Below, piece by piece: positions 18,426 through 53,376 of a stretch of DNA of 64,000 nucleotides. Location of the stretch: contig OZ241883.1 in the NCBI GenBank assembly GCA_965203445.1, positions 1,184,001 to 1,248,000 of the forward strand. The letters are read 5' to 3'. The translations under genes and the position numbers were made by a program. The notes under the pieces are model-generated. The model saw only the letters and a list, made by a program, of their open reading frames with translations, did no database searches and was not told the DNA's origin. The number at the start of each line of letters is the position of its first letter. The stretch's first letter is position 1. The stretch is from Candidatus Oxydemutator sp. GTDB lineage: Bacteria > Pseudomonadota > Gammaproteobacteria > Poriferisulfidales > Oxydemutatoraceae.

Positions 18426-21400
18426 TGGCCGACAAACAAGCACTGCAAGCGCTATTCGCCGCCGCCTACGACCGCGACCGCTGGCTTAAGCAACTGCATG
18501 ATATTTTTGCCGGGCGCCTGGAGGAGTTTGCGGCACCGCACGCTTTGCCGGCGAAAGAAGGCGAGGATGCGCCCCCGCGCCACTATCTCGGCAACCTCAC
18601 CACCGCGGACGGCAAAAAACTCGGCATCTTCGAGATACCGGTGGGCACCAATATCCGCCTTGCCCGCAACCGCGTGCAACTGCGCAACCTCGTGGCGCGC
18701 CAAGTGCAGGAACATACCCTGAACGGCGCCCTGGCCGTCTATCCCGACGCCGACAACCGCTGGCGCTTCAGCTACATCGCCGTTACCGGAAAACTGGATG
18801 AGAAGGGCGCCATCACAAAAGAAGAAACCGCCCACAAACGCTACACCTACCTGTTGGGCGAAGGCATGCAGACCCGTACTGCGGTCGACCGCTTTGTCGC
18901 CTTGCCGACACCCCCCATCCTCGAACAACTCGACTATGCCTTTGCGACGGAACCGCTCAACAAAGTGTTCTACCAGGAGCTTTACCATTGGTACGAACGC
19001 GCCAAACTTCATGTGGTGTTCCCCAACGATGAACGGGAAGAGGAAGACACGCACGTCTCCACAAGCCTGATTCGCCTGCTGACCCGATTACTCTTTATCT
19101 GGTTTATGAAGGAAAAGGAACTGATCAATCAGGATTTCTTTGTCCTCGATAAGGTCAGACACATGATTGATTGGAACAGGGAGAGCAGCTACTACAAAGC
19201 CATCCTGCAAAACCTGTTTTTTGCCACTTTGAACCGCGAGATCCCAAAGCGCCGGTTCCGCACCACCAACGCCAAGGGCAAGCCGACCGGCAACAACTAC
19301 CTGGTGACCAATGTCTATCGCTATGAGCGCTATTTCAAAGGCATGAAAAAAGCGGAAATTATCAAGCTGTTCGCCCAAACCCCGTTCCTGAACGGCGGCC
19401 TGTTCGAGTGCCTGGACAGAGACGCCGATGAAGAGAAACAACGGGTTTATGAGAAAGACAGAACTATTCGCAAAGAGAGAAAAGAGAAACGAGCAATCCG
19501 CATGGACGGCTTTTCCGACCATGACAAAAACCGGCTGCGTGTGCCCAACGACCTGTTTTTCAACGACGACGAAGAACAACCCGGCCTCATCAACCTGCTT
19601 TCCCGATACCAGTTCACCGTGGAAGAAAGCATGCCGTTGGATGCAGACGTGGCGTTGGACCCCGAACTCCTGGGGTTGGTGTTTGAAAATCTGCTGGCAT
19701 CCTACAACCCCGAAACCGAGCAAACCGCCCGCAAAGCCTCCGGCTCCTACTACACCCCGCGCGAGATCGTCTCCTACATGGTGGACGAAAGCCTGAAAGC
19801 ATATTTTGCGCAAGCAACCGACGTGGCCGACACAAAGATCAACCGCTTGTTCCTGCCCCCGCAGGCAGGCAAGGATTCGACTACCGGCGCGGCAAGCGAA
19901 CTCACCGAGAATGAGACGACGGCCCTCATCCAGGCGATAGATACCATCAAGATCATTGATCCTGCGGTCGGCAGCGGCGCCTTTCCGATGGGGATATTAC
20001 AGCGATTGGTGCAGATACTCGGCATTGTTGATCCCGAAAACAAACGCTGGAAAAAACGGCAAACGGACATTATTGACAAACTGCCGGACACCGAGAGCCG
20101 CGAGCAGGCACGCAAGGAAGTGGAAACTATTTTCAGCGAAAAGAATCGTTTTAACGATTTCGGACGCAAGCTGTATCTGATCGAAAAGTGCATCCACGGC
20201 GTGGACATCCAGCCCATCGCCTGCCAGATTGCCAAGCTGCGCTTCTTCATCTCGCTGACCATCGAGCAGAAGCCGACCGATGACCCTCACGACAACCGCG
20301 GCATCAAACCACTCCCCAACCTCGAAACCAGGTTTGTCGCCGCCGATACGCTGCTGGGACTTGACAGACCGGCCCAACGCACATTGGGACAAACCGACGC
20401 CGTCAACCGGTTGGAACGGGAGCTGAACGCCAATCGGGAGCGACATTTTCGCATCACCACACGCAAATCAAAGATGGCGTGCTGGAAAAAGGACAAGGAA
20501 CTGCGAAACCAACTGGCCACCGAGCTGAAACAGGCCGGCTTCCCCGCCACCAACGCCGACAAAATTGCCCGCTGGGATCCCTACGACCAGAATGCCTCAG
20601 CAGCTTGGTTCGACCCTGCATGGATGTTCGGCGTCAAGGGTGGCTTTGATGTAGTTATCGGCAATCCACCCTATGTCGAGTCAAGAAATAGTTTGCTGCC
20701 AAATGAACTAAAGAATTCTTACGGAAAGCAGGTACTAAGTGACTGGAAAGAAACCTTACCTCGTGGAAGTGATTTGCTTATCTACTTTTACGCTCGCTCC
20801 TCGAAACTACTAAAGCGTGATTCAAGTTACGGCTGTTTTATCACTCAAAACGCTTGGCTAAGCACCGACTATGGGAAAAAATTTCAAAAGTTTTCAATCG
20901 GAAAACTCTCTTTCCAGAAGATCGTTGACACCTCCTCCAAATTCTTTCTCGATACCAAAAGCCAAAACATCAATGCAGTTATCACATTTTTTACTACGAA
21001 ACCATTGCAAACCATAGAATATGGGGTTGCTGATAGCAATATGACTGTTGCCTCAATGAAGAATATTAAAGCGAAGCAAACAATGAAATGGGGACACCTT
21101 TTTTCTATGCCACAATTCTTCGCGGATATATTGTCGAAAATGTCTGCTAACGCTGGTACGAGCAATACGATCAAGTTTGGACAAGGATTAAACTTCCCTC
21201 TGCAAGAATTAAACAAAGTGGGAGCCAAAATACCTATTATTGTCAAAACCTCGTGGTTCGTTGCCAAATCTGCCGACGGGCTGATACTTCAGGCTAACAG
21301 GAAAAAAGAAAAAATACCGGCACTGATTCTACCGCGTGGAGTGGGAAACCGGCACTATTGCACCTTTAATTTGTGCAGGGCATTTTCATACAGCCATGTA

Positions 21401-21787
21401 GAATTATATCTACCTGATGACTTACGAAATTCGGCAAAGCACTATTGCCTATGGCTCTATCTCAACTCTTCCTTTGTTTGGTTGTATAGAGAAATCACAG
21501 GTAGAAAGAATCTTGGGGGAGGCTTGTTGAAGGCCGAGGCAACGGATATGAAAGCATTGCCTGTTGATTTTGACTTTGATTTTGGCAAGGACGCAAAAAA
21601 GGTGTTTAATAGTATCCGAGATAGAACACCAATGCCCGTTTTGGAGGAAATTCATACGAAGGATCATATTCTCATAGACGAAATAGTGGCTAACTATTTT
21701 GGTTTTACAGATATGCAAGGAACCATTAGAGAAACTCTATCTGAACAGGTTAATTTTCGTCTGAACAGAGTGCGCCCCCAACACTGA
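18425..21787 (+). CDS. Type IIG (Eco57I-like) restriction-modification enzyme / N6-MTase with C-terminal TRD
   Basis: Motifs PFLNGGLF, GSYYTPREIV, DPAVGSGAF and VIGNPPY. The start overlaps the helicase stop. The TRD region is AT-rich after about 20680. Confidence 0.9.
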   Translation: MADKQALQALFAAAYDRDRWLKQLHDIFAGRLEEFAAPHALPAKEGEDAPPRHYLGNLTTADGKKLGIFEIPVGTNIRLARNRVQLRNLVARQVQEHTLNGALAVYPDADNRWRFSYIAVTGKLDEKGAITKEETAHKRYTYLLGEGMQTRTAVDRFVALPTPPILEQLDYAFATEPLNKVFYQELYHWYERAKLHVVFPNDEREEEDTHVSTSLIRLLTRLLFIWFMKEKELINQDFFVLDKVRHMIDWNRESSYYKAILQNLFFATLNREIPKRRFRTTNAKGKPTGNNYLVTNVYRYERYFKGMKKAEIIKLFAQTPFLNGGLFECLDRDADEEKQRVYEKDRTIRKERKEKRAIRMDGFSDHDKNRLRVPNDLFFNDDEEQPGLINLLSRYQFTVEESMPLDADVALDPELLGLVFENLLASYNPETEQTARKASGSYYTPREIVSYMVDESLKAYFAQATDVADTKINRLFLPPQAGKDSTTGAASELTENETTALIQAIDTIKIIDPAVGSGAFPMGILQRLVQILGIVDPENKRWKKRQTDIIDKLPDTESREQARKEVETIFSEKNRFNDFGRKLYLIEKCIHGVDIQPIACQIAKLRFFISLTIEQKPTDDPHDNRGIKPLPNLETRFVAADTLLGLDRPAQRTLGQTDAVNRLERELNANRERHFRITTRKSKMACWKKDKELRNQLATELKQAGFPATNADKIARWDPYDQNASAAWFDPAWMFGVKGGFDVVIGNPPYVESRNSLLPNELKNSYGKQVLSDWKETLPRGSDLLIYFYARSSKLLKRDSSYGCFITQNAWLSTDYGKKFQKFSIGKLSFQKIVDTSSKFFLDTKSQNINAVITFFTTKPLQTIEYGVADSNMTVASMKNIKAKQTMKWGHLFSMPQFFADILSKMSANAGTSNTIKFGQGLNFPLQELNKVGAKIPIIVKTSWFVAKSADGLILQANRKKEKIPALILPRGVGNRHYCTFNLCRAFSYSHVELYLPDDLRNSAKHYCLWLYLNSSFVWLYREITGRKNLGGGLLKAEATDMKALPVDFDFDFGKDAKKVFNSIRDRTPMPVLEEIHTKDHILIDEIVANYFGFTDMQGTIRETLSEQVNFRLNRVRPQH

Positions 21788-21931
21788 GTGCAAATCACTT
21801 GGGTGGCCAAGCCCATTAAGTCCACCAACACCACCGACACCAGCGCCCAAGAAACCAAAATCAACCACCTCGTATATAATCTCTACAACCTGACCCCAAA
21901 AGAAATCGCCGCATTGGAGCAGAAAAAATGA
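21788..21931 (+). repeat. Type IIG C-terminal tail remnant, leader type A copy 1
   Basis: In frame with the IIG gene after its TGA: ...DTSAQETKINHLVYNLYNLTPKEIAALEQKK*. The stop overlaps the next ATG. Confidence 0.8.
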
Positions 21932-23295
21932 ACAAACCAGCCAAGGTATTCATCACCTATTCACATCGCAATAAAGACGCGAGGGAAAAACTGAGCGAGC
22001 GCCTTGCGGTGATGGAGAAAAATGGGGAGATAGAAATCTGGCACGATAACGAAATACTCCCGGGCGACAGGTGGCGAGAAGAGATCTCCAAGAATCTTGC
22101 CGGTTCAGATATTCTGCTTCATCTTACTTCCGCGGCCAGCCTTGCCTCCGAAAACTGCAACAGAGAACTGACCGAAGCACTGCGAAGTGAGGAAAGGATA
22201 CGTAGGATTCCCATCATCCTCGAAGCTTGCGACTGGAAGCACGAACATGATCTCAGTCAGATTGAGGCACTTCCCGACAAAGGCAAACCTATCAACGAGT
22301 GGAAACCTAAGAGCAAAGGTTGGCAAAGTGTAGTCGACGGCCTACGCAAAGCTATCCAGAAAACCCGCCAGCTCATGCAGGAAGAGCAAAGTGAAGCACA
22401 GGCTTATTTGATGCTGCAAAATGGCAATTTTTTTGCGATATTAGGGCAACTGGAAGACGCAATAAACACTTATTCACAAGCCATTAAGATCAAATCAGAT
22501 TTTGCCGATGCCTATTGCAATCGCGGCATTGTTCATGCCAAGAAAGGCGACCATGACCAAGCCATCCGAGACTACAACCAAGCCATTGAACTAAACCCCG
22601 ATTTTGCCGAGGCCTATTACAATCGCGGCATTTCCTGCGAGAAGCAGGATAACCATAACCAAGCCATCCAGGATTACAGTAAAGCCATCGAACTAAAGCC
22701 CAGTTATACCGAGGCCTATAACAATCGCGGCGTTGCCTACGAGAAGCAAGGCAACCTTAACCAAGCCATCCAGGATTACAGTAAGGCCATTGAACTAAAT
22801 CCCAATTTTGCCAACTATTATTTCAATCGCGGCCTTGCCTACGAGAAGCAAGGCAACCTTAACCAAGCCATCCAGGATTGCAGTAAAGCCATTGAACTAA
22901 ATCCCGATTATGCCGAAGCCTATAACAATCGCGGCCTTGTCTACGAGAAGCAAGGCAACTTTAACCAAGCCATCCAGGATTACAGTAAGGCCATTGAACT
23001 AAATCCCAATTATGCCGATGCCTATTGCAATCGTGGCACTACTTACTTTGAACAGGGTGATTTTGACCAAGCCATCCGAGACTACAACCAAGCCATTGCG
23101 CTCCAGCCAGATTTTGCCGAGGCCTATTGCAACCGAGGTATAGTTTGGTTGTGCAAGCAAGCATGGAATGAAGCCAAGTCAGATTTGGAGACCGCCAAGG
23201 AAAAGGGCATGAACATTGCCAAGCGAATGTCTGACTTTGTAGAGAAATACCAGAGCCAACTACCGGAGGACATCATAGATATACTGACCGAATAA
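21928..23295 (+). CDS. TIR domain-TPR repeat protein (about 8 TPRs)
   Basis: VFITYSH, WHD.EILPG and SENCNRE (TIR Glu), followed by 34-aa AYxNRG repeats. Confidence 0.92.
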   Translation: MNKPAKVFITYSHRNKDAREKLSERLAVMEKNGEIEIWHDNEILPGDRWREEISKNLAGSDILLHLTSAASLASENCNRELTEALRSEERIRRIPIILEACDWKHEHDLSQIEALPDKGKPINEWKPKSKGWQSVVDGLRKAIQKTRQLMQEEQSEAQAYLMLQNGNFFAILGQLEDAINTYSQAIKIKSDFADAYCNRGIVHAKKGDHDQAIRDYNQAIELNPDFAEAYYNRGISCEKQDNHNQAIQDYSKAIELKPSYTEAYNNRGVAYEKQGNLNQAIQDYSKAIELNPNFANYYFNRGLAYEKQGNLNQAIQDCSKAIELNPDYAEAYNNRGLVYEKQGNFNQAIQDYSKAIELNPNYADAYCNRGTTYFEQGDFDQAIRDYNQAIALQPDFAEAYCNRGIVWLCKQAWNEAKSDLETAKEKGMNIAKRMSDFVEKYQSQLPEDIIDILTE

Positions 23296-23318
23296 GGCTT
23301 CTCCTTTCATTGCCCCCT

Positions 23319-23544
23319 CCCTCACCCGGCCTGCGGCCACCCTCTCCCAGAGGGAGAGGGTTTGGTTGACAGGAGTATCCCCACATAGGCCACCTTCATC
23401 CGCTTGGTGGACGCTATAATAGCCGCCAAATCCACCAATCCAACCGCCGACACCAGCCCCCAAGAAACCAAAATCAACCACCTCGCATATCAACTCTACA
23501 ACCCGACCCCGAAAGAAATCGCCGCTGTGGAAGACAAAACATGA
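23319..23544 (+). repeat. REP-like palindrome plus IIG-tail leader type A copy 2
   Basis: ccctcacccggcctgcggccaccctctcccagagggagaggg, then FIRLVDAIIAAKSTNPTADTSPQETKINHLAYQLYNPTPKEIAAVEDKT* with an ATGA overlap. Confidence 0.85.
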
Positions 23545-24875
23545 ATAATCAGACCGACAAAAACCAATTAGAAACAGTGCTGGAAATCATCAACCGCCTC
23601 GCCAAAGAATCGGTTAGCGGTGACTACATTTATCGTGGCGAACCCAAATGCTACGAGAAAGTATCATCCCGCCTCTACAGAGAAGAATGTAAGGATATAA
23701 AGGTTGATGGCTTTGACATTGAGGTTGTACAACAGGAAATACTAAAAGACGCTAAGCAATACACCACGCTGACAGATAAACTCGAAATTCTATCCGAACT
23801 CCAGCACTATGGCGGTAATACCAACCTGATAGACTTCACCACTGATTACCTGATCGCCCTTTTCTTTGCCTGTAACAGTTTGCTTGGCAAAGATGGTAAA
23901 GATGGCAGGGTGATCTTGCTGGAAAATACAGGCGAGTCTATTAACCAACCTCGAAATCCGCTCAATCGCATCATTGCCCAGAAGAGTAGATTCATCCGCC
24001 CGAAGCAAGGCTTCATTGAACCGAAAAAATATAAGGTCATTAAGATTTCAAAAGAGCTCAAGCCGCACATCTTGACGCACCTGCGAAAATCTCACGGCAT
24101 CTCCACGGAAACCATCTATAACGACCTACATGGATTCATAAGAAACCGAAGCATCCACCAAAGTGCCTACATAGAGTTCTATCGGGCATTTACCTATCAA
24201 GACAAAGGCGATAATGATGAGGCGATTAAACACTATACCGAAGCCATTAGACTCAATCCGAATTTAGTTGAGGCCTATAACAATCGCGGCCTTGCTTACT
24301 ATAGGAAAGATGACTACGACCAAGCCATCCAGGATTACAGTAAAGCCATTGACCTAAATCCTAATTATGCCAAAGCCCATTACAGTCGCGGCATTGTTTA
24401 CTATAGAAAAGGCGAACTTGATGAAGCCTTCCAAGACTTCACCCGAGCTATTGAACTACAGCCAGATTTTACCGATGCTTATTACAACCGCGGCGTTGCT
24501 TACTCTAGCAAAGGTGAATTTGATGAAGCTATCAGAGACTACAACCAAGCTATTGCGCTCAATCCAGATCATGCCGAAGCCTATAACAACCGTGGTGCTG
24601 CTTACGATAAGAAAGGTAATTTTGATAAAGCTGCCGAAGACTACAACCAAGCCATTACGCTCCAGCCAGACAATGCTGTTGCCTATTTCAACCAAGGTAC
24701 AGTCTGGTTGCGCAAGCAGGCATGGGATGCAGCCAAGTCAGATTTGAAGGCCGCCAAGGAAAAGGGCGCAGACATTGCCGAGCTATTTTCCAATGACTAT
24801 GGCAGCGTTTCAGCCTTTGAAGAGAGATACCATATTCAACTACCAGCGGACATCAGAGATATGCTGACCGCATAA
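23541..24875 (+). CDS. FRG domain-TPR repeat protein (about 6 TPRs)
   Basis: IYRGE, LQHYGGNTNLIDFT, ALFFAC and RIIAQKS, followed by TPRs and the same C-cap as the TIR-TPR genes. Confidence 0.9.
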   Translation: MNNQTDKNQLETVLEIINRLAKESVSGDYIYRGEPKCYEKVSSRLYREECKDIKVDGFDIEVVQQEILKDAKQYTTLTDKLEILSELQHYGGNTNLIDFTTDYLIALFFACNSLLGKDGKDGRVILLENTGESINQPRNPLNRIIAQKSRFIRPKQGFIEPKKYKVIKISKELKPHILTHLRKSHGISTETIYNDLHGFIRNRSIHQSAYIEFYRAFTYQDKGDNDEAIKHYTEAIRLNPNLVEAYNNRGLAYYRKDDYDQAIQDYSKAIDLNPNYAKAHYSRGIVYYRKGELDEAFQDFTRAIELQPDFTDAYYNRGVAYSSKGEFDEAIRDYNQAIALNPDHAEAYNNRGAAYDKKGNFDKAAEDYNQAITLQPDNAVAYFNQGTVWLRKQAWDAAKSDLKAAKEKGADIAELFSNDYGSVSAFEERYHIQLPADIRDMLTA

Positions 24876-24892
24876 GGATTTCCATTTCATTA

Positions 24893-25073
24893 CCCCTCCC
24901 CCGGCCTTCGGCCACCCTCTCCCAGAGGGGGAGGGTTTGGCTGATAGGAATATCCGCTGTGAAGGATAGCCACAATCAGGGAGGATAGGCTACTATAATC
25001 AAACAAAACTTGACTACCTAATCTACCGAAGCACAATCTCAGCCAAGCCGAAATCGCCACTTATGGAGAAAAA
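24893..25073 (+). repeat. REP-like palindrome plus leader type B
   Basis: Palindrome at 24893-24935, then aatcagggaggataggctactataatcaaac...gccgaaatcgccacttatggagaaaaa. Confidence 0.8.
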
Positions 25074-26579
25074 ATGAACGAACCGGCCAAACTGTTCATC
25101 ACCTATTCGCATCGGGACAAAGACGCGAAGGACAAACTGATCGAGCGTCTTGCGGTGATGGCCCACAATGGGGAGATAGAAACTTGGCACGACAACGAAA
25201 TTCTCCCAGGCGACCAATGGAAGGAAAAAATCTCCGACCGTCTCGCCGGTTCGGATATTCTGCTTTATCTTACTTCCGCGGCCAGCCTTGCCTCCGAAAA
25301 CTGCAACAAGGAACTGACCGAAGCACTGCAAAGCAGGGGAAGGATACGTACGATTCCCGTCATCCTTGAAGCTTGCGACTGGCAGGAACATAAGCTCAGT
25401 CAGTTTGAGGTGCTCCCCCACAAAGGCAACCCCGTCAACGAGTGGAAGCCTGAGAGCAAAGGTTGGCAAAATGTAGTCGAAGGCATACGCAAAGTTATCC
25501 AGGAAATCCAGGCTATCCAGGCAACCCGCCGGCCCATGCAAGAAAAGCAAAGTGAAATACTGGCTTATTTGATGCTGCAAAATGGCAATTTTTTTGTGAT
25601 GTTGGGGCAACCAGCAAACGCAATAGCCGCTTACTCACAAGCCATCAAGATCAAACCGGATTTTGCCGCAGCCTATAATAATCGCGGCGCCGCATACGAT
25701 AAGAAAGGTAAATTTGATGAAGCTATCGAGGACTTCAACCAAGCCATTGAACTGAACCCCAATCATGCTGAGGTCTACTACAATCGCGGCATTGCTCATG
25801 GCAAAAAAGGCAACTATGACCAAGCCATCCGAGACTGCAACAAAGCCATTGCGCTCCGGCCAAGTGATGCCGATACCTATAACAATCGCGGCATTGTCTA
25901 TGAAAAGCAAGGCAACCCTAACGCAGCCATCCAGGATTACAGTAAAGCCACTGAACTAAATCCCGATTATGCCGAGGCCTATTACAATCGCGGCATTGCT
26001 CATGGTAAAAAAGGCGACTATGACCAAGCCATCCAAGACTTCGACAAAGCCATTGAACTAAACCTGAATTATGCCGGGACCTATAACAATCGCGGCGTTG
26101 TCTACGAGAAGCAAGGCAACCATGACCAAGCCATCCGAGACTACAATAAAGCCATTGCGCTAAACCCCAATTTTGCCGAGGTCTATTGCAATCGCGGCGT
26201 TATCTATAAGAAACAAGGCAACTCTAATCAAGCCATCCAGGATTTCAGTAAAGCCATTGAACTAAATCCCAATTTTACCGGGGCCTATTACAATCGCGGC
26301 CTTGCTCATGGCAAAAAAGGCGACTATGACCAAGCGCTCCGAGACTTCAACCAAGCCATTGAACTACACCCTAATTATGCCAAAGCCTATTTCTACCGAG
26401 GCATGGTCTGGTTGCTCAAGCAAGCATGGGATAAAGCCATGTCAGATTTGAATACCGCCAGGGGAAAGGGCCTGAATATTGCCGAGCTGTTTTCCAGCGC
26501 CTTTGGCAGCGTTCCTGCCTTTGAACAGAAATACCGTATCCAACTACCGCAGGACATCAAAGATATGCTGACCGCATGA
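25074..26579 (+). CDS. TIR domain-TPR repeat protein (about 9 TPRs)
   Basis: Close paralogue of 21928..23295, with SENCNKE. Confidence 0.92.
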   Translation: MNEPAKLFITYSHRDKDAKDKLIERLAVMAHNGEIETWHDNEILPGDQWKEKISDRLAGSDILLYLTSAASLASENCNKELTEALQSRGRIRTIPVILEACDWQEHKLSQFEVLPHKGNPVNEWKPESKGWQNVVEGIRKVIQEIQAIQATRRPMQEKQSEILAYLMLQNGNFFVMLGQPANAIAAYSQAIKIKPDFAAAYNNRGAAYDKKGKFDEAIEDFNQAIELNPNHAEVYYNRGIAHGKKGNYDQAIRDCNKAIALRPSDADTYNNRGIVYEKQGNPNAAIQDYSKATELNPDYAEAYYNRGIAHGKKGDYDQAIQDFDKAIELNLNYAGTYNNRGVVYEKQGNHDQAIRDYNKAIALNPNFAEVYCNRGVIYKKQGNSNQAIQDFSKAIELNPNFTGAYYNRGLAHGKKGDYDQALRDFNQAIELHPNYAKAYFYRGMVWLLKQAWDKAMSDLNTARGKGLNIAELFSSAFGSVPAFEQKYRIQLPQDIKDMLTA

Positions 26580-26602
26580 GGATTCCCATTTCATTGCCCC
26601 CT

Positions 26603-26828
26603 CCCTCACCCGGCCTGTGGCCACCCTCTCCCAGAGGGAGAGGGTTTGGTGAAGAAGAATATCCCCTGCATAGGCCATCTTCATCTGCCTGATGGACGTT
26701 ATAATAGTGCTATGCCCACCAAAGCTGGCTGCCGACACCAGCCTCCGAAAAACCAAAATCAACCACCTCATCTATCAACCCTGCAACCTGACCCCGAAAG
26801 AAATCGCCACCGTGGAGAAACAAAGTGA
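26603..26828 (+). repeat. REP-like palindrome plus IIG-tail leader type A copy 3
   Basis: Palindrome at 26603-26644, then gccgacaccagc...aaccaaaatcaaccacctc...gaccccgaaagaaatcgcc. Confidence 0.82.
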
Positions 26829-27625
26829 GCACACAACCAATTGAAGCAGTTGCTGAATACCTTAAGCAAGTCTCAACAATAAAACAGCAGTGGCAGTCTC
26901 CTGTATTAGTCTTTCGCGGCCAGGAAAATGAAGAGTGGAGCTTGGAATCTTCGGCGGAACGCCGCCTGAAGAAGTCCGAGAGCAGAAAAAGAATAAACAA
27001 ACAGTTATTCATTAAGTATCACAAAGACCTGTTAAAGGAATGCAAGCTGAAGAACTATGACAGGCGGGAAGGCAAATCATTGCATGAACTGGAACTCCTG
27101 GCCGATCTCCGACACCATGGCGCCGCTACTTGCCTCATGGATTTCACGCGTAGTGCTCTCGTTGCTCTATGGTTTGCCTGCGAAAAATCAGAGGCGAATG
27201 GAAAAGTGTTTGTTGTCAACACCGCCAATAAAAAAACCTTTTCGGGAATAGAACCCGACGATATAGACAGCCAATCAATAGAAGACATTCTCAGATTTCA
27301 AACTCGTAAAAAGAAGCGAGTCAAACTACAGGAAGAAAGAACATCCAAAACAGTACAAAGCAGACGTTTTTGGCACTGGGCACCAGCACGCCTGAACGAA
27401 CGCATAACGGCGCAACATTCGCTGTTCCTCTTCGGCCCCCCTACCTCTGGAGAACCGGAGGCAGGAACGATACTTATAGAATCAGGGGAAAAAGCGCAAA
27501 TAAGGCGGGAACTGGAAGAAATACACGGGATCAATGAAGAGTCTCTCTTCCCGGATTTTGCAGGTTTTGCCTACACCCAGCGATACCGTGTCTGGGGTCA
27601 ATACTTGGACAAAAGCTTGGCATAG
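26825..27625 (+). CDS. FRG domain protein without TPRs (possibly 3'-truncated)
   Basis: Motifs VFRGQ, RHHGAATCLMDFT, ALWFAC, RITAQHSLF and GINEESLFPD. Confidence 0.85.
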   Translation: MSTQPIEAVAEYLKQVSTIKQQWQSPVLVFRGQENEEWSLESSAERRLKKSESRKRINKQLFIKYHKDLLKECKLKNYDRREGKSLHELELLADLRHHGAATCLMDFTRSALVALWFACEKSEANGKVFVVNTANKKTFSGIEPDDIDSQSIEDILRFQTRKKKRVKLQEERTSKTVQSRRFWHWAPARLNERITAQHSLFLFGPPTSGEPEAGTILIESGEKAQIRRELEEIHGINEESLFPDFAGFAYTQRYRVWGQYLDKSLA

Positions 27626-27639
27626 AGTGATATTCTCCA

Positions 27640-27757
27640 CAAGAGATGGCCACAATCAGAGTAGACAGGCTGCTATAATCAAACATAAGGTTGACTACCC
27701 AATCCAACCAATATTACTATCTCGGCCAAGCCGAAACCGCCGCTTAATGGAGGAACA
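27640..27757 (+). repeat. Leader type B containing an extended -10 (TGCTATAAT)
   Basis: Homologous to 24960-25073 and 33238-33351. Confidence 0.75.
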
Positions 27758-29017
27758 ATGAACGAACCGGCCAAACTGTTCATCACCTATTCGCATCGGG
27801 ACAAAGACGCGAAGGACAAACTGAGCGAGCACCTTGCGGTGATGGCCCGAAATGGGGAGATAGAAACTTGGCACGACAACGAAATTCTCCCGGGCGACCA
27901 ATGGAAGGAAAAAATATCCGACCGTCTCGCCGGTTCGGATATTCTGCTTTATCTTACTTCCGCGGCCAGCCTCGCCTCCGAAAACTGTAACAAGGAACTG
28001 GTCGAAGCGCTGCAAAGTGGGGAAAGAATACAGCCAATTCCCATCATCCTTGAAGCTTGCGACTGGAAGCAACATAAGCTCAGTCAGTTTGAGGTGCTCC
28101 CCCACAAAGGCAAACCCGTCAACAAGTGGGAGCCTGAGGGCAAAGGCTGGCAAAGCGTAGTTGAAGGCATACGCAAAGTTGCCCAGGAAACCCGCCGGCC
28201 TATACAAGAAGAGCATAGTGAACCACTGGCTGACGCGCTGCTGGAAAATGGTAATTTTTTTATGATGCTGGGGCAGCTGGCAAGCGCGATAGACGCTTAT
28301 TCACAAGCCATTAAGATCAAGCCGGATTTTGTCGAAGCCTATCGCAACCGCGGCGCTGCCCACGGTATGAAAGACGAACATGACCAAGCCATCGAGGACT
28401 TCACCCGCGCTATCGAACTACAGCCAGATTTTGCCAAAGCCTATTGCAACCGCGGCATCGTCTACAGCAGGACAGGCGAACAGGGCCAGGCCGTCCGAGA
28501 CCTCACCCGCGCGATTGAACTACGGCCGGATTTTGCCAGAGCCTATAACAGCCGCGGTGTTGCTTACGGCAGGAAAGGTAAATTTGATGAAGCTATCAGA
28601 AACTTCGACCAGGCCATTGCGCTCCAGCCAGATTATGCCGAGGCCTATTACAATCGCAGCATTACCTACGAGAGGCGAGGCAACCTTGACCAGGCCATCG
28701 AGGATTATAATAAAGCCGCTGATACCTATATCAAGCGCGGCAACGCTCATGGCAGGAAAGGCGACTATGGCCGAGCCATTCGGGACTACAACCATTCCAT
28801 TGCGCTCAATTCAGATGATGCTGCCGCCTATTGCAATCGAGGTATGTTCTGGTTGCTCAAGCAAACATGGGATAAAGCCAAGTTGGATTTGAGGACCGCC
28901 AGGGACAAGGGCGCGGACATTGCCGAACTGTTTTCCAATGACTATGGCAGCGTTTCAGCCTTTGAAGAAAAATACCATCAACTGCCGGAGAACATCAAAA
29001 ATATGCTGACCGCATGA
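27758..29017 (+). CDS. TIR domain-TPR repeat protein (about 7 TPRs, one shortened)
   Basis: Paralogue with SENCNKE. YNKA-ADTY lacks the 7-aa inter-repeat segment. Confidence 0.92.
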   Translation: MNEPAKLFITYSHRDKDAKDKLSEHLAVMARNGEIETWHDNEILPGDQWKEKISDRLAGSDILLYLTSAASLASENCNKELVEALQSGERIQPIPIILEACDWKQHKLSQFEVLPHKGKPVNKWEPEGKGWQSVVEGIRKVAQETRRPIQEEHSEPLADALLENGNFFMMLGQLASAIDAYSQAIKIKPDFVEAYRNRGAAHGMKDEHDQAIEDFTRAIELQPDFAKAYCNRGIVYSRTGEQGQAVRDLTRAIELRPDFARAYNSRGVAYGRKGKFDEAIRNFDQAIALQPDYAEAYYNRSITYERRGNLDQAIEDYNKAADTYIKRGNAHGRKGDYGRAIRDYNHSIALNSDDAAAYCNRGMFWLLKQTWDKAKLDLRTARDKGADIAELFSNDYGSVSAFEEKYHQLPENIKNMLTA

Positions 29018-48559: not shown

Positions 48560-49133
48560 CTGCGGTGCGCAGCCGGCTGCGCCGAGGGAAGTGCGCCTTC
48601 AGGAACTCCATCTGGTCGGCCAGCACGGTGCGCGCCTGTAGATAGACGTATTCGGCGTGGGTCGGCACGAACGGCACCGCCAGCAGTTTCAGGCCGGCCT
48701 GTTCCGGTGTGCGCCCCGCCTTGTGGTTGTTGCAGCGCTTGCAGGCGGTTACGACGTTGCTCCACTTGTCCTCGCCGCCCTGGTGAAACGGCACGACGTG
48801 ATCGCGCGACAGATCGCGGCGTTGGAAGCGTTCGCCGCAGTACATGCACAGGAAGGCGTCGCGGCGGAACAGCGTCAGGTTGTTCAGCGGCGGCACGTAT
48901 TCCAGCCCGAGGCGCGGATTTTTGCCGTAGGTGGCGATGATCGAGTCCACGACGATCACGCTGCGCCGCCCGGACGCGGCGTTGACGCCGCCGCGAATTC
49001 TGAACAACTGCGCGCCGGCGCTGTAGGCGACCTCGCCCAGGTAGTAGAAGCGCACGGCGTCCTGGTAGCCGATCCAGTCGAGCGGCATGCCGGATACGTC
49101 CACCCGCAGGATTTTCTGGCTGAAGTTGTTCAT
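48543..49133 (-). CDS. HNH endonuclease (McrA-like, HNH_5)
   Basis: LFRRD..CMYCG...DHVVP...W.NVVTAC..CN..K. Confidence 0.9.
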   Translation of the reverse strand: MNNFSQKILRVDVSGMPLDWIGYQDAVRFYYLGEVAYSAGAQLFRIRGGVNAASGRRSVIVVDSIIATYGKNPRLGLEYVPPLNNLTLFRRDAFLCMYCGERFQRRDLSRDHVVPFHQGGEDKWSNVVTACKRCNNHKAGRTPEQAGLKLLAVPFVPTHAEYVYLQARTVLADQMEFLKAHFPRRSRLRTADEPPQ

Positions 49134-49772
49134 CGCTTCGCTGGATTTGTCGCTCGGAATGGCGCAATTCAAACGGAATTATACACAAACGCGCTACAAA
49201 TCCGGCCCATGGCTCCCTCGCCGTTGGTCGCTCCTTGCCGCACAAGCGGGAATCCGGCAAAAACCGGCGGCACTGGCGGCATCGTCGCCACTGCATTTGT
49301 AGGGGTTTTGCCGGGCGGTCGGGCGGACGCATCGGGTTGTCCTGTCAGCGGATGTATAATGTTTGGGACTTATATACAAAAATGCACCGAAAGCGCTTGA
49401 GAACCATATAAGGCAAAGGGTTTGATAGGATTGACTTTATGCGGTGCTTGCGCCCCGTGACCCGGGGGGCGTCGCCGCCATTTCAAGGGAAACGGCAGTG
49501 AACAAGCAACCGCCCGCTTTTGTTCCGCTGGTTCGGGGAATACTCCGACTGGATTCCCGCTGGCGTGGGAATGGCAGATCGGTATCTGTCTGATTTCATT
49601 CCTTTTTTCTTGGGCGTTTTTATCCTGGTTACAATGTGTCCAATCGGGCGAAACGGCGGGCGTGGTTGCCTGCGGAAGCATTAGTGACAAATTTCCCACA
49701 AATTTTTCCACAGAAATTGTGGGTAATTTTTGGGAATTATGTATCAAAATCTACAGAATGACCGTGAAGTAA

Positions 49773-49800
49773 TTGAATTTACATAGAAATATGATATAAT
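49773..49800 (+). promoter_or_regulatory. Sigma70 promoter for tnpB
   Basis: TTGAAT-N16-TATAAT with an extended TG. The ATG is only 10 nt downstream with no SD, so the mRNA is near-leaderless. Confidence 0.7.
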
Positions 49801-49810
49801 TCATTCTAAT

Positions 49811-51082
49811 ATGAAGGTATATAGGACTATCCGCTACAGGCTGCATCCGGGCACGCAAGCCAAAGCCCGCAAGTTGGCGGGTTTGGCGGGGGCGTGCAGA
49901 TTTGTGTGGAATCATTTTGTGGGGAAGTTACGGGACGAGTATCTGGCGTACGGGGGATGCCGGCCATGGTATTACACGTTAGGCAAGCAATTTACTTTGT
50001 TACGGCGTTATTGTGAATCCTGGCTACAGGAATACTCGGCGAACATAGTAAAGAGTTCTTTGAAACCCATAGAGACTGCGTACAAGAAGTTCTATGACAA
50101 GAAGGGCGGGTTGCCCAGGTTCCATGCTTATGGAATACATCAAGAGAGTTTTCCTCTTGTGCCCGGCCGGTTTCGTATAAGAAGGCGCCATCTGCATATA
50201 GAGAAGATGGGTGAGTTTCTGTTGTTTGGTCGTAATCCATATCCGGATGCAAAGCCCGCGTCGGGTACAGTCAAAAGGGAATGCGGGAATTGGTATGCGT
50301 ATGTGGTTTATGCCGTGGAACAGAAAGAGATTAAACGGGAGTACAATTCAGTGGGCATAGACAGGAATGTAGGTCAGGTAACGTGCTCTGATGGAATTGT
50401 ATATCGAATGCCTGATACTACTCGATTAGATGCGCGTAAGCGTCGCCATCAACGTATGGTGGCAAGACGTAAGTGTGGCAGTAGAAAGCACAAGGTAAAG
50501 CCTTCTAACAGGTACTTGCGGGCAAAGCATTTACATGCAGTAGTCAGTAGGAAGATAAAGCAGAAAAGGAATAATTGGTGTCATCATGTAAGTAATGAGA
50601 TAGCAGAGAATTATTCTGTAGTACATTTGGAGGATTTGAATACAAAGGGGATGACAAGGAGTGCCAAGGGCACAAAAGAAAGACTAGGTAAGAATGTAAA
50701 ACAGAAGTCTGGGTTGAATAAGGGGATACTGAATACGAACTGGTATAAGTTTGAGCAATTTTTGGGTTACAAGACCCAAGTGAATTATGTGCCCGCCAAG
50801 GACACGAGTCGTGCGTGTAACAAGTGTGGTCATACGGAAAAGAAAAACAGAGTATCGCAATCAGTATTTGTTTGTGTTGATTGTGGTCATCGGGATAATG
50901 CTGATCTTCAATCATCGTATAACATACATGAGTATGGAGATTATCTATTAGAATATAAGGCCTCCGGGAATGGGGCAACTGGACGTGGAGATGGCGGTAA
51001 GACCCTGAAGGAATTATTGACCGACAGGGCACGGTCTGTGAAGCGTCAAATGGGTACCAACAACCTACGGAATCCTCTGTAG
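49811..51082 (+). CDS. tnpB: RNA-guided endonuclease TnpB
   Basis: HTH YRLHP..GACRFVWN, RuvC-I GIDRN, RuvC-II LEDL, Zn finger CNKCGH/CVDCGH and RuvC-III NAD. Confidence 0.95.
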   Translation: MKVYRTIRYRLHPGTQAKARKLAGLAGACRFVWNHFVGKLRDEYLAYGGCRPWYYTLGKQFTLLRRYCESWLQEYSANIVKSSLKPIETAYKKFYDKKGGLPRFHAYGIHQESFPLVPGRFRIRRRHLHIEKMGEFLLFGRNPYPDAKPASGTVKRECGNWYAYVVYAVEQKEIKREYNSVGIDRNVGQVTCSDGIVYRMPDTTRLDARKRRHQRMVARRKCGSRKHKVKPSNRYLRAKHLHAVVSRKIKQKRNNWCHHVSNEIAENYSVVHLEDLNTKGMTRSAKGTKERLGKNVKQKSGLNKGILNTNWYKFEQFLGYKTQVNYVPAKDTSRACNKCGHTEKKNRVSQSVFVCVDCGHRDNADLQSSYNIHEYGDYLLEYKASGNGATGRGDGGKTLKELLTDRARSVKRQMGTNNLRNPL

Positions 51083-51198
51083 ATTTTGATACATAATTCC
51101 CTAATTTTTGCCGCACGTCGCCCGTTTGGTGTCGTTCGTCGGAAACTGCGACGACGGTGCGACTGCCACCGCCGCGGCCGAGGGCGCGCTCCCGACCA

Positions 51199-53376
51199 AT
51201 GCCCTCTCCGCTGATCCTGCGGGTCGCAATTCCGTCGGCCTTGCCGAAGTGTCTCGACTACCTCGCGCCGACGCCCGCGCCGTCGCCAGGAGTGCGAGTG
51301 TCGGTGCCGCTGGGGTCGCGCTCGGCAGTCGGCGTCGTCGTCGAGGTGCCGCGCGAGACGCGCGTGGCGCACGCATTGCTGAAACCGGTCGAGCGCGTCG
51401 TTGACGAATCCCCCGTCGTTTCGGCGAGACTGCTCGAATTGTTGCAGTGGAGCGCGCGCTATTACCACCAGCCGCTAGGCGGCGTGTTGCGCGCGGCGTT
51501 GCCGACGTTGGCGCGACGCGGCGCGGCGTTGCGGATTCCGCGCGTCGTGACCTGGGAAGGCGCGCCCGGCCGCGACGAGCCGCCGGCCGCCGCCGTCAGG
51601 CAGAAGGCGCTGCTCGCGCTGCTTCGGGATCGGGGGCGCCACGATGAGGATGCGCTGAACCGCCGCTTTCCGGGCTGGCGTCCGGTGATGCGGCGCCTGC
51701 TCGACAGAGGGCTTGCCGTCCGGCGCGAGGAAGCGATGGCCGGCAAACCGCCGTCGCGGCGCCCCCATCCGCTCAACCGCGAGCAGGCGGCGACGGTCGA
51801 GTCGGTGGCCGCGGACTTCGGGCGGTTCCGCCGCTGCCTGCTCGAGGGCGTAACCGGCAGCGGCAAGACCGAGGTCTATCTGGCGTTGTGCGCGCAGGCG
51901 CTGGAGAGGGGCGAGCAGGCGCTGGTGTTGGTGCCGGAGATCGCGCTGACGCCGCAGACGGTCGAGCGCTTTCGCGCGCAGCTGGGAAGTGCGGTGTGCG
52001 CGTACCATTCGAGGCTGAGCGAGCGCGAACGTTTCCAGTGCTTCAGCGCGGCGCGCGCCGGCGCCGCCGCCGTCGTCATCGGCACGCGCTCCGCGGTGTT
52101 CCTGCCGTTTCGGCGGCTTGCGCTGATCGTCGTGGACGAGGAGCACGACGCCTCGTACAAGCAGCACGACTCGTCTTTTCGTTACCACGCCAGAGACGTT
52201 GCGATCAAGCGCGCCCAGCTTTGCAAGCTGCCGATCGTGCTCGGCAGTGCGACGCCGTCTCTCGAGTCGCTGCGCAACGCGGCGGGCGGCCGCTACGAGC
52301 ACCACCGCCTGGCGCGTCGCGCCGCCGGCGCCGCGCCGCCGCTGTGGCGGGTGCTCGACCTGCGCGGCGCGCGCCTTGACGGCGGCTTGTCGCCCGCGCT
52401 GGTCGCGGCCATGCGCGAACGTCTGGCAAGGCGCCGCCAGGTGCTGCTGTTTTTGAATCGGCGCGGTTACGCGCCGGTCACGTTGTGCCGCGATTGCGGC
52501 GCCGCGCCGTCGTGCACGCGCTGCGACGCGCGTCTCGTGTACCATCTGCGCGAGCACCTGCTGCGCTGCCACCATTGCGGCCTGTCGCTGCGCCCCCCCG
52601 ACGCCTGCGCCGACTGCGGCGGCGAGTTGCGGCTGGTCGGCCTCGGCACCGAAAAGATCGAAGAGAAACTGCGGCAGTTGTTTCCCGATGCCGGCATTGT
52701 GCGCGTGGACGCCGACGCGGTGCGGCGCAAGAACGAATTGCAGCACCGCCTTACGCTCATTCGCCGCGGCGACGCCGACGTCGTGCTCGGGACGCAGATA
52801 TTGGCGAAAGGGCATCATTTTCCGGCGATCACGCTGGTCGGCGTCGTGCACGTGGATCAGAGCCTTTTCGCGCCCGACTTCCGCGCGCTCGAACGCTTCG
52901 GCCAACTGGTAACGCAGGTCGGCGGGCGCGCCGGGCGCGGTGCGGACGCGGGCGAGGTCATGTTGCAGACCCACCACCCCGACCACCCGCTGCTGCAAAC
53001 GCTGTTGAAGAGCGGTTACGCCGCGTTCGCGTCGCAACTGCTCGCGCAGCGCGAGGTTGCCGGACTGCCGCCGTACCGCCACCTTGCCGTCGTACGCGCG
53101 CAATCAAGCGTCGCCGGCGAGGCCATCGCCGTGCTCGACCGCGCCCACCGATTCTCGCGCGACATGGCCGCGCGAGAATCGGTGCACATCTACGAACCAG
53201 TGCCGATGATGATGGAGAAAAAGGCCGGCGCCTACCGCGCGCAACTGTTGCTGAGCGCCGGCCGTGCGCGCGCCTTGCACGCCTGCCTGTCGGCCTTGCT
53301 GCCCGAAGTGCGCAAGCTCGCGCGATCGCGCAAACTGCGCTGGCACGTGGACGTGGATCCCTTGGAGGTGGTGTGA
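51199..53376 (+). CDS. priA: Primosomal protein N'
   Basis: GVTGSGKTEVY, DEEHD.SYKQ, LNRRGYAP, Cys clusters and DVDP. Confidence 0.97.
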   Translation: MPSPLILRVAIPSALPKCLDYLAPTPAPSPGVRVSVPLGSRSAVGVVVEVPRETRVAHALLKPVERVVDESPVVSARLLELLQWSARYYHQPLGGVLRAALPTLARRGAALRIPRVVTWEGAPGRDEPPAAAVRQKALLALLRDRGRHDEDALNRRFPGWRPVMRRLLDRGLAVRREEAMAGKPPSRRPHPLNREQAATVESVAADFGRFRRCLLEGVTGSGKTEVYLALCAQALERGEQALVLVPEIALTPQTVERFRAQLGSAVCAYHSRLSERERFQCFSAARAGAAAVVIGTRSAVFLPFRRLALIVVDEEHDASYKQHDSSFRYHARDVAIKRAQLCKLPIVLGSATPSLESLRNAAGGRYEHHRLARRAAGAAPPLWRVLDLRGARLDGGLSPALVAAMRERLARRRQVLLFLNRRGYAPVTLCRDCGAAPSCTRCDARLVYHLREHLLRCHHCGLSLRPPDACADCGGELRLVGLGTEKIEEKLRQLFPDAGIVRVDADAVRRKNELQHRLTLIRRGDADVVLGTQILAKGHHFPAITLVGVVHVDQSLFAPDFRALERFGQLVTQVGGRAGRGADAGEVMLQTHHPDHPLLQTLLKSGYAAFASQLLAQREVAGLPPYRHLAVVRAQSSVAGEAIAVLDRAHRFSRDMAARESVHIYEPVPMMMEKKAGAYRAQLLLSAGRARALHACLSALLPEVRKLARSRKLRWHVDVDPLEVV

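Follow-up and report, generated by a model that had tools for sequence, protein, structure and literature searches.

TnpB, the ancestor of Cas12, is used as a compact genome-editing nuclease, and what is known of its biology comes almost entirely from the transposon families IS200/IS605 and IS607, where excision is scarless and a fixed target motif doubles as the target-adjacent motif (TAM). Here, we analyze a tnpB gene in a stretch of 64,000 nucleotides, in the following called the window, from Candidatus Oxydemutator sp. (assembly GCA_965203445.1, contig OZ241883.1, positions 1,184,001 to 1,248,000). Window positions 49732-51101 constitute a 1370-bp element, in which a single intact tnpB is the only open reading frame (ORF) between perfect 26-bp terminal inverted repeats (TIRs), bordered by an 8-bp target site duplication (TSD); direct inspection of the sequence and a repeat finder agree on these bounds, as the earlier note on this DNA had described them. 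With a probability of roughly 80%, we regard the element as a member of a non-autonomous transposon family of the IS1595-family type, the sole cargo of which is TnpB together with its guide RNA (omega-RNA).

Members of IS200/IS605 have neither TIRs nor TSDs; they carry subterminal hairpins, rely on a Y1 transposase and use a fixed 4-5-nt target, which at the same time serves as TAM (PMC13565253). The window family, in contrast, has TIRs of 24-26 bp and variable, AT-rich TSDs of 8 bp, and shows no fixed flanking motif. With the IS1341-type elements of IS200/IS605 (ISDra2 TnpB, PDB 8bf8/8exa) it shares the protein fold family and the catalytic residues, and presumably also a guide RNA which overlaps the tnpB 3' end, reads out of the right end and contains a pseudoknot, as described for IS200/IS605 (PMC10711439). 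The IS607 family likewise lacks TIRs and TSDs, both of which the window element has, and employs a serine recombinase TnpA.

The principle that TnpB resides in DDE-type elements with TIRs and that solo copies are moved in trans is already published. Altae-Tran 2023 (PMC10691335) describe six DDE-associated TnpB branches, DDE-1 to DDE-6, all of them with inverted terminal repeats and with the TnpB 3' end at most 250 bp from the transposon end; some solo TnpBs bear the ends of transposase-carrying copies, which the authors read as mobilization in trans. The window family resembles these branches in its inverted terminal repeats, in a 3' end less than 250 bp from the tip and in solo copies with the ends of transposase elements. 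It differs in that its 13 copies in this genome and most related loci are devoid of a transposase within the element (with one fused case, L051), in a TSD that is 8 bp long and variable, and in an ORF that runs into the TIR. As a DDE partner, the PNAS main text names IS630 only, and the terms 'IS1595', 'ISXO2' and 'Merlin' do not occur in it; the supplements list the DDE branches, to one of which the window family may belong (PMC10691335). A 2026 review gives ISL2, IS630 and IS1031 as DDE partners of TnpB (PMC13565253), and Yoon 2023 tie TnpBs to IS200/605 and IS607 (PMC10711439). In the literature that we searched, with the supplements of Altae-Tran 2023 outside the search, no link between TnpB and IS1595 was found, including any TnpB passenger with its guide RNA in an IS1595 end.

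Among eukaryotes and viruses, Fanzor1/Fanzor2* are comparable in that a TnpB-family nuclease resides, often alone, in non-autonomous elements with TIRs and TSDs, where the TIR is predicted to be scaffold (Bao & Jurka 2013; PMC10711439). Fanzors differ in their eukaryotic or viral hosts, their IS607-type ancestry, the absorption of TSDs into the scaffold and, for Fanzor1, the loss of the pseudoknot (PMC10711439), whereas the window family is bacterial, its protein is nearer to IS200/IS605 TnpB, the pseudoknot is apparently kept, and the TSD varies too much to belong to a scaffold. The parallel to Fanzors drawn in the earlier note holds for carriage within TIRs and TSDs, while the principle itself had already been in print (PMC10691335). 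On the side of the transposon, insertion sequences (ISs) of the IS1595 family are similar to the window family in their 8-bp TSDs, in TIRs starting with GG and in the possession of passenger genes (a methylase-HNH gene in the copy resident in this genome); their transposases are characterized by the domains Zn_ribbon_IS1595 and DDE_Tnp_IS1595 (PMC8101967).

Judged by its sequence, the protein encoded in the window is a TnpB. It reaches 181.3 bits against the NCBIfam model NF040570 guided_TnpB (cut-off 100) and matches the Pfam families Cas12f1-like_TNB (1.6e-12), HTH_OrfB_IS605 (1.4e-07) and OrfB_IS605 (1.1e-06); the bit scores exceed the cut-offs for PF07282 (47.8 vs 26.3) and PF12323 (31.3 vs 21), and fall slightly below for PF01385 (29.2 vs 30.5). 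An alignment with the solved ISDra2 TnpB (8bf8) spans residues 9-373 (E 1.3e-17), with the catalytic triad on acidic columns and both CxxC pairs aligned. The RuvC residues D184, E274 and D365 are invariant across the 13 paralogues of the genome, as are C336, C339 and C358 of the CxxC...CxxC zinc finger, the remaining C355 being present in 12 of 13; both features had been recognized from the letters alone. Over 60 usable of 78 pairs of these paralogues, dN/dS has a median of 0.15. Given intact ORFs, an intact triad and this ratio, the tnpB copies are maintained genes rather than wrecks. Scores against the models IS200_TnpB (140.7 bits) and IS607_TnpB (69.9 bits) do not reach the cut-offs of 425 and 350, respectively. 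Among plasmid-borne relatives, the nearest reach at most 34% identity and belong to the canonical IS200/IS605 TnpBs (in one case with tnpA alongside), in agreement with the higher of these two scores.

The element is one of many in its genome (G000). A search with the 26-mer, allowing up to six mismatches, returned seven paired elements and three solo ends, compared with no match for the reversed pattern, which excludes chance. By tblastn with the window TnpB, 13 full-length copies (55-96% amino-acid identity) and four fragments were obtained. All 13 full-length copies are bounded by GGGAAYTAY...ATARTTCCC ends, and other copies with TSDs of their own, which the earlier note had proposed to look for, are thus at hand: the two TSD copies agree at 8/8 positions in eight cases, at 7/8 in two, at 6/8 in two, and at 4/8 in one. 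The arrangement is tight throughout, with 26-99 bp between the left tip and the ATG and 5-19 bp between the stop codon and the right tip in 13/13 copies. In seven of them the stop codon is the TAA of the terminal ATATAATTCCC; in the window copy it is the TAG at 51080-51082, within the right repeat, as noted before. The outer 12-13 bp of the left TIR follow the consensus GGGAATTATATAC (GGGAATTATGTAT in the window copy), which is common to the whole family and to the IS1595 transposase element described below, while the inner half is specific for the subfamily. Although the inner halves vary between subfamilies, left and right arms still match each other, which points either to several cognate transposases over time or to recognition of the outer 12-13 bp only. 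The elements measure 1.25-1.4 kb, and the family is multi-copy and apparently active.

Three shortened relatives accompany the full-length copies. An internal-deletion element of 786 bp (G000:C1:247602-248387) retains the beginning of tnpB as well as the 3' third, where the guide RNA is presumed to be encoded; its TIRs are identical to those of the window copy, its interior is nearer to another subfamily, and it could supply guide RNA without a nuclease. A miniature inverted-repeat transposable element (MITE) of 163 bp (G000:C1:113341-113503) has TIRs with 2 and 4 mismatches, respectively, to the 26-bp TIR of the window copy, and a solo left end (about 126 bp; G000:C1:2003395-2003520) has a TIR identical to that of the window copy.

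The window element encodes no transposase, tnpB being its only long inward ORF, and hence is a non-autonomous derivative rather than an IS. A plausible source of transposase exists in the same genome. The element G000:C1:1978350-1980965 (L009:501-3116) is 2616 bp long, has a TSD of its own (ATCAGAAA) and TIRs that agree at 24/26 positions with those of the tnpB copy at 2133905 and at 21/26 with the window copy. Its 314-aa protein matches DDE_Tnp_IS1595 over the full-length domain (1.3e-43) as well as Zn_ribbon_IS1595, and scores 205.9 bits against NCBIfam transpos_IS1595 (cut-off 75); a 436-aa N6/N4 DNA methylase with a C-terminal HNH domain is its passenger. This is the only intact IS1595 transposase in G000. 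An IS1595 DDE transposase with near-identical ends and its own 8-bp TSD, as the earlier note had anticipated, is therefore present, and the shared ends support its proposal of a non-autonomous IS1595-type element that carries TnpB and would be mobilized in trans. The ends GGGAATTAT fit ggnnatTAT, which we take to be the ISfinder end consensus of the ISNwi1 subgroup of IS1595; the assignment to this subgroup is provisional. As side observations, L010 (G000:C1:512000-515500) harbors a fragment (146 aa, 42% identity) of an IS1595-like transposase directly upstream of another methylase-like ORF, and a methylase query gave 24 tblastn matches across G000, a hint of numerous DNA methylase paralogues.

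Elements built like that of the window also occur in other genomes. A pattern scan, restricted to one genome per species, returned 76 loci from metagenome-assembled genomes (MAGs) labelled Gammaproteobacteria, Arenicellales, Ca. Porisulfidus, Thiotrichales, Chromatiales and Ca. Oxydemutatoraceae, with one from Opitutales. A TIR pair of the GGGAATTAT type is present in 32/76 loci, with TSD agreement of 8/8 in 14, 7/8 in six and at most 6/8 in 12. Among the remaining 44 are cut contigs, fragments and an Arenicellales variant. This variant has ends GGGACTTATATAC and elements of 1.5-1.9 kb, with perfect TSDs in six of 19 loci examined (L053, L056, L058, L064, L067, L095).

In L032, L061 and L072, tnpB elements have a transposase gene of the IS1595 family at a distance of a few kb, and the elements that contain these transposase genes begin with GGGAATTATATAC; the L032 transposase (57% identical) is likewise followed by a methylase gene. 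In G015, a plain IS1595 IS of 1282 bp (L115:3795-5076, TSD GCGGCAAT) has the TIR GGGAACTATATACTATTCTGCACA, which corresponds to nearly the full TIR of the tnpB element L074 on the same record, and across genomes the TIR of the L057 tnpB element matches the IS of L061/L072. Among 31 related genomes, a DDE_Tnp_IS1595 gene occurs in 19 and the TnpB family in 11, with both in ten of those 11; as these genomes are kin and not independent, the co-occurrence is only consistent with the model.

More divergent members were found in G030, where 16 TnpB matches include two more distant subfamilies (L107-L111) in TIR/TSD elements. Their TnpBs, at 36-38% identity, are again located between TIRs and 8-bp TSDs, with different termini (L107, TSD CTATAAAT; L110, TSD CTTCTAAA, ends GGGGCTCCG.../...CGAAGCGCC). 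Consequently, the association is old and diversified, and the reading of the earlier note needs to be amended in that this is not a single recent capture of TnpB.

An autonomous element, i.e., transposase and TnpB within one TSD, was sought among the examined loci and none was found. L051:2724-5238 (Arenicellales MAG) was considered and rejected, since both genes are enclosed by outer TIRs, but a TSD is missing and the inner ends are degenerate. With an IS1595-type transposase at 2754-3644 (minus strand), tnpB at 3977-5221 (plus strand) and abutting inner ends that are fused, it resembles two welded elements. In L114 and L115, transposase and tnpB occupy separate elements. Some irregular loci may be mentioned here. 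In the longer Arenicellales elements L056:1767-3344 and L066:2218-3708, additional ORFs (525 and 496 aa, respectively) lie inside the TIR/TSD bounds, probably other ISs that are nested, as judged without a family search. At L115:3417-3621, adjoining the G015 elements, a TIR-like end (GGGAATTGTCTAGTGCAGAACC...) occurs three times at 68-bp spacing, each time followed by ctcctttg or ctcccttg, and a fourth, more diverged TIR-like end lies 68 bp upstream of this tandem array.

The 3' part of the element, including the right TIR itself, shows signs of an RNA structure. For 46 elements, of which 12 stem from G000 and 34 from elsewhere, the terminal 240 nt were aligned (alignment A2). The internal hexamer GGGAAT is complementary to the last six bases of the element, ATTCCC, about 130 nt downstream, and pairs of this GGGAAU/AUUCCC helix are formed in 98.6% of the A2 cells. 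Two positions show compensatory changes, with AU in 34 members, UG in six, CG in three, UA in one and others in two at the first, and with UA in 44, CG in one and another in one at the second; paired variants are GGGAAC with GTTCCC in L022 and GGGATT with AATCCC in L067. The covariation score was not reached in 500 shuffles and collapses when the partner is slid by 1-3 columns, and RNAalifold returns the helix unprompted. In the distant L110/L111, the end AGCGCC is matched by an exact GGCGCT 147 nt upstream, and in L107-L109 a GGGG/CCCC core only is evident. In published TnpB guide RNAs (reRNAs), a pseudoknot joins the guide-flanking nucleotides to an upstream loop (PMC10711439), a geometry that the helix between tip and internal hexamer matches.

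The 3' part has further candidate features. A second stem-loop (stem-loop 2) folds in most of the 46 members with differing stems (CGAG/CUCG, CCGC/GCGG, CAGC/GCUG, GAAGGAC/GUCCUUC). Synonymous divergence is lower in the last alignment block (0.38) than elsewhere (0.63-0.68), while non-synonymous divergence rises there; this combination is expected for an RNA constraint over a poorly conserved peptide tail. A terminal hairpin, the 3' arm of which would be the inner half of the right TIR, is moderately supported by a swap control on the aligned sequences: the own arm combined with the own TIR yields a mean of -13.6 kcal/mol, compared with -10.1 kcal/mol after swapping, and is better in 41/46 members. 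A first criterion for this hairpin (at least five inner-TIR bases paired upstream in the minimum free energy (MFE) fold) was abandoned as too loose; it accepted 39/46 right ends, but also 10/13 left-end controls. An Rfam scan of 48900-51400 at E<=1 gave only mir-1684 and JA03, both at chance level and far below their gathering scores, and thus no match to a known omega-RNA family. The covariation suggests that an omega-RNA scaffold extends as far as the outermost bases of the element, in which case the putative guide would consist of the TSD and the right flank.

From these data we propose the following course of events. An IS1595-family transposase, supplied in trans, would bind the TIRs of the tnpB elements and move them by DDE chemistry with 8-bp staggered target cuts. 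A promoter close to the inner side of the left end may drive tnpB, and the 3'-terminal ~140 nt of the transcript would become the omega-RNA scaffold, in which the internal GGGAAU forms a pseudoknot with the 6 nt at the tip of the right TIR and the inner TIR half supplies the 3' arm of the terminal hairpin. The omega-RNA would read out of the element, so that its guide (51102 onward) starts in the TSD and extends into the right flank. Reportedly, a locus cut by TnpB is repaired from an occupied copy, whereby IS605 and IS607 elements are retained and spread (Meers 2023). By analogy with these TnpBs, the guided nuclease may cut element-free copies of the insertion locus, and recombinational repair from the occupied copy may restore or spread the element.

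Beyond this, and with slightly less than even odds, we suggest that the family is an old lineage, in which TnpB and omega-RNA co-evolved with IS1595 transposons and the TIR doubles as scaffold, a bacterial counterpart of Fanzor transposons that arose independently from an IS200/IS605-type TnpB. A relaxed or TSD-derived TAM is possible under this proposal, because the guide would begin inside a variable AT-rich TSD without a fixed flanking motif.

Several observations weigh against the IS1595-type reading or against parts of it. The TIR of the resident transposase element differs from the window copy at 5/26 positions, and the inner TIR halves of most subfamilies are unlike any transposase-bearing element in G000. 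Despite its 16 TnpB matches, G030 gave no DDE_Tnp_IS1595 match at E<=1e-10. TSDs are imperfect in 5/13 copies in G000, and reach 6/8 or less in 12/32 external loci. As to the RNA, one pseudoknot cell each is unpaired in L040, L061, L047 and L025, and much of the covariation originates from one clade, Arenicellales. The swap control shows no specificity in the window copy (-9.9 vs -9.4 kcal/mol), the mean MFE z-score of the terminal hairpin is only -0.73, and the longest perfect stem has a mean of 6.8 in right ends, 5.6 in left ends and 5.8 in shuffled sequences. A position table of 33 insertion sites revealed no conserved TAM before the TSD; the left flanks have G at -1 in 20 sites (C in none) and A at -3 in 16, and the 8-bp TSDs are A/T-rich but variable. 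Finally, cut-and-paste excision by a DDE transposase already leaves a break, so that the benefit of a homing nuclease is unclear (PMC13565253). Aside from this list, the G030 elements may be stranded or may be served by a diverged transposase.

The missing TAM and the weak statistics of the terminal hairpin would be compatible with tnpB copies that are domesticated or decaying passengers without an RNA-guided role, the conserved 3' end reflecting transposase binding and coding constraint, and many TnpB clusters are immobile (Altae-Tran 2023, PMC10691335). Among the alternatives this one survives best, but we hold it to be improbable: ORF and D/E/D triad are intact in each of the 13 copies, with a dN/dS of 0.15, many copies have TSDs, stem-loop 2 shows compensatory changes, and neither coding nor transposase binding explains why an internal coding hexamer covaries with the tip of the element.

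Marginally less probable still is mobilization by a different transposase that makes 8-bp TSDs, e.g., from another DDE family, with the likeness to IS1595 reduced to a generic outer motif. Such a scenario would account for the fact that only the outer 12-13 bp are common to all subfamilies whereas the inner halves differ, and for G030 with its many copies and no DDE_Tnp_IS1595 match at the threshold given above. Judged from a survey of G000 that covered IS1595-type transposases only, it is at odds with the matches over the full TIR length between tnpB elements and elements with an IS1595 transposase, which amount to 24/26 in G000, recur in G015 between L074 and L115:3795-5076, and extend across genomes from L057 to the IS of L061/L072. 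Moreover, the IS1595 transposase elements have 8-bp TSDs themselves, and the published traits of the family fit (8-bp TSDs, zinc ribbon and DDE_Tnp_IS1595; PMC8101967).

The view that an ordinary IS200/IS605 (IS1341-type) or IS607 tnpB element inserted into a small MITE, to which TIRs and TSD would belong, is very improbable and largely refuted, for although the protein is nearer to IS200_TnpB than to IS607_TnpB, its closest plasmid relatives are canonical IS200/IS605 TnpBs (one adjoining tnpA) and a 163-bp MITE with the same TIRs is present in G000, the spacing of ATG and stop codon from the tips leaves no room for IS605 ends in any of the 13 copies (the point on which this alternative, already raised in the earlier note, fails), the arrangement is constant in many genomes and across subfamilies down to 36-38% identity, the predicted scaffold pseudoknot employs the TIR tip itself and covaries with it, both 'exception' models of NCBIfam remain far below their cut-offs, and no Y1 or serine recombinase turned up beside any copy, without a search having been aimed at these.

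We thus return to the non-autonomous IS1595-type element and to its place in the genome; Table 1 lists its features.

Table 1. Features of the tnpB element and its insertion site, with positions in the window.
Feature	Position	Strand	Basis and remarks
Insertion target	49707-49731	+	Terminator-like hairpin 49707-49723, then T-rich run; last 8 bp are the left TSD
Left TSD copy, 8 bp, TAATTTTT	49724-49731		Sequence, repeat finder
Left TIR, 26 bp, GGGAATTATGTATCAAAATCTACAGA	49732-49757	+	Perfectly complementary to 51076-51101
Sigma-70-like promoter, TTGAAT-16-TATAAT with upstream TG	49773-49800	+	10/12 consensus matches
tnpB ORF, 423 aa and TAG stop	49811-51082	+	Only long inward-reading ORF
Internal GGGAAT, predicted 5' strand of pseudoknot	50966-50971	+	Covariation, RNAalifold; overlaps G-N codons of conserved GNG motif
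Predicted stem-loop 2	50989-51039	+	Outer stem AGRY/RYCU and variable inner stem; apical insertion in window subfamily
Conserved nucleotide block GTGAAGCGTCAAATGG, presumed single-stranded scaffold	51038-51053	+	Near-invariant A2 columns near ORF end
Predicted terminal hairpin	51065-51082	+	3' arm is inner half of right TIR; weak in window copy
Right TIR, 26 bp	51076-51101	-	Last 6 nt ATTCCC (51096-51101), predicted 3' strand of pseudoknot
Right TSD copy, 8 bp, TAATTTTT	51102-51109		Sequence, repeat finder
Putative guide segment, TSD and right flank	51102-51121	+	Length assumed by analogy with other TnpBs

The G+C content of the element (44%) is well below that of the genome (63.6%, 2.38 Mb). 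Concerning transcription, the earlier note had postulated a strong promoter inside the left end. The site itself exists as a consensus match only, and three promoter-like sites were found in the region compared with 3.5 expected; subfamilies with 26-36 bp between tip and ATG are too short for such a promoter.

The insertion target was delineated by a terminator scan, which reported the stem at 49707-49723 followed by TAATTTTTGG. This hairpin is kept in the same-genus genomes G001 and G003, both of which are without the element. In a search with the DNA of 48600-52200 against 30 relatives, the empty site, which the earlier note had suggested to look for, came to light in precisely these two, each with one copy of the 8-bp stretch (G001, ...GTGGG-TAATTGCC-GCCGC...; G003, ...GTGGG-TAATCGCC-GGCGC...). 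The genes flanking the insertion, an HNH-domain ORF (minus strand) and a priA-like ORF (plus strand), are adjacent in 3/3 same-genus genomes and lie 151 bp apart in G002. Since the site is unoccupied in these relatives, the insertion postdates the split of the same-genus genomes. The recent insertion claimed from the perfect ends is supported in so far as the element is absent from the locus in all three genomes, the flanks of which are 74-86% identical to those of the window; no narrower dating follows. In contigs from three sequencing runs of one study, none of them recorded as RNA, both junctions are covered in X1 and no joint skipping the element was seen; a presence/absence polymorphism in the population was therefore not observed, although contigs cannot show absence.

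Two regions of the window are recorded as side observations. Upstream of the insertion, about 500 bp (49200-49731) have ~55% G+C and no convincing ORF, and end in the hairpin and T-run; part of this region is kept at 74-86% in the same-genus genomes, no Rfam match was obtained, and it may represent a small RNA gene or a regulatory region. At 19000-29000, a ~10-kb island of low G+C content (0.43-0.52 vs ~0.64 for the genome) with a strong excess of A over T was probably acquired horizontally.

What appears to be new, compared with the DDE-associated TnpBs already described, is IS1595 as a further DDE partner, a deep lineage with the transposase located outside the tnpB element at every examined locus except one, and the covariation between element tip and putative scaffold. 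If the proposed RNA is real, the tip of the TIR would be the guide-proximal strand of the pseudoknot, and with a relaxed or TSD-derived TAM the logic of homing or retention would differ from that of IS605 and IS607. The finding touches on the question, raised by Yoon 2023 (PMC10711439) and in PMC13565253, why bacterial TnpBs rarely, but Fanzors commonly, pair with DDE transposons; the latter source offers the break left by DDE excision as a reason for this rarity. A second question is how a guide RNA coexists with transposase-binding TIRs and a variable TSD. With elements of 1.25-1.4 kb and a transposase of 314 aa, the family provides a compact, multi-copy bacterial system for testing both, and it shows that RNA-guided nucleases can change transposon partners in bacteria.

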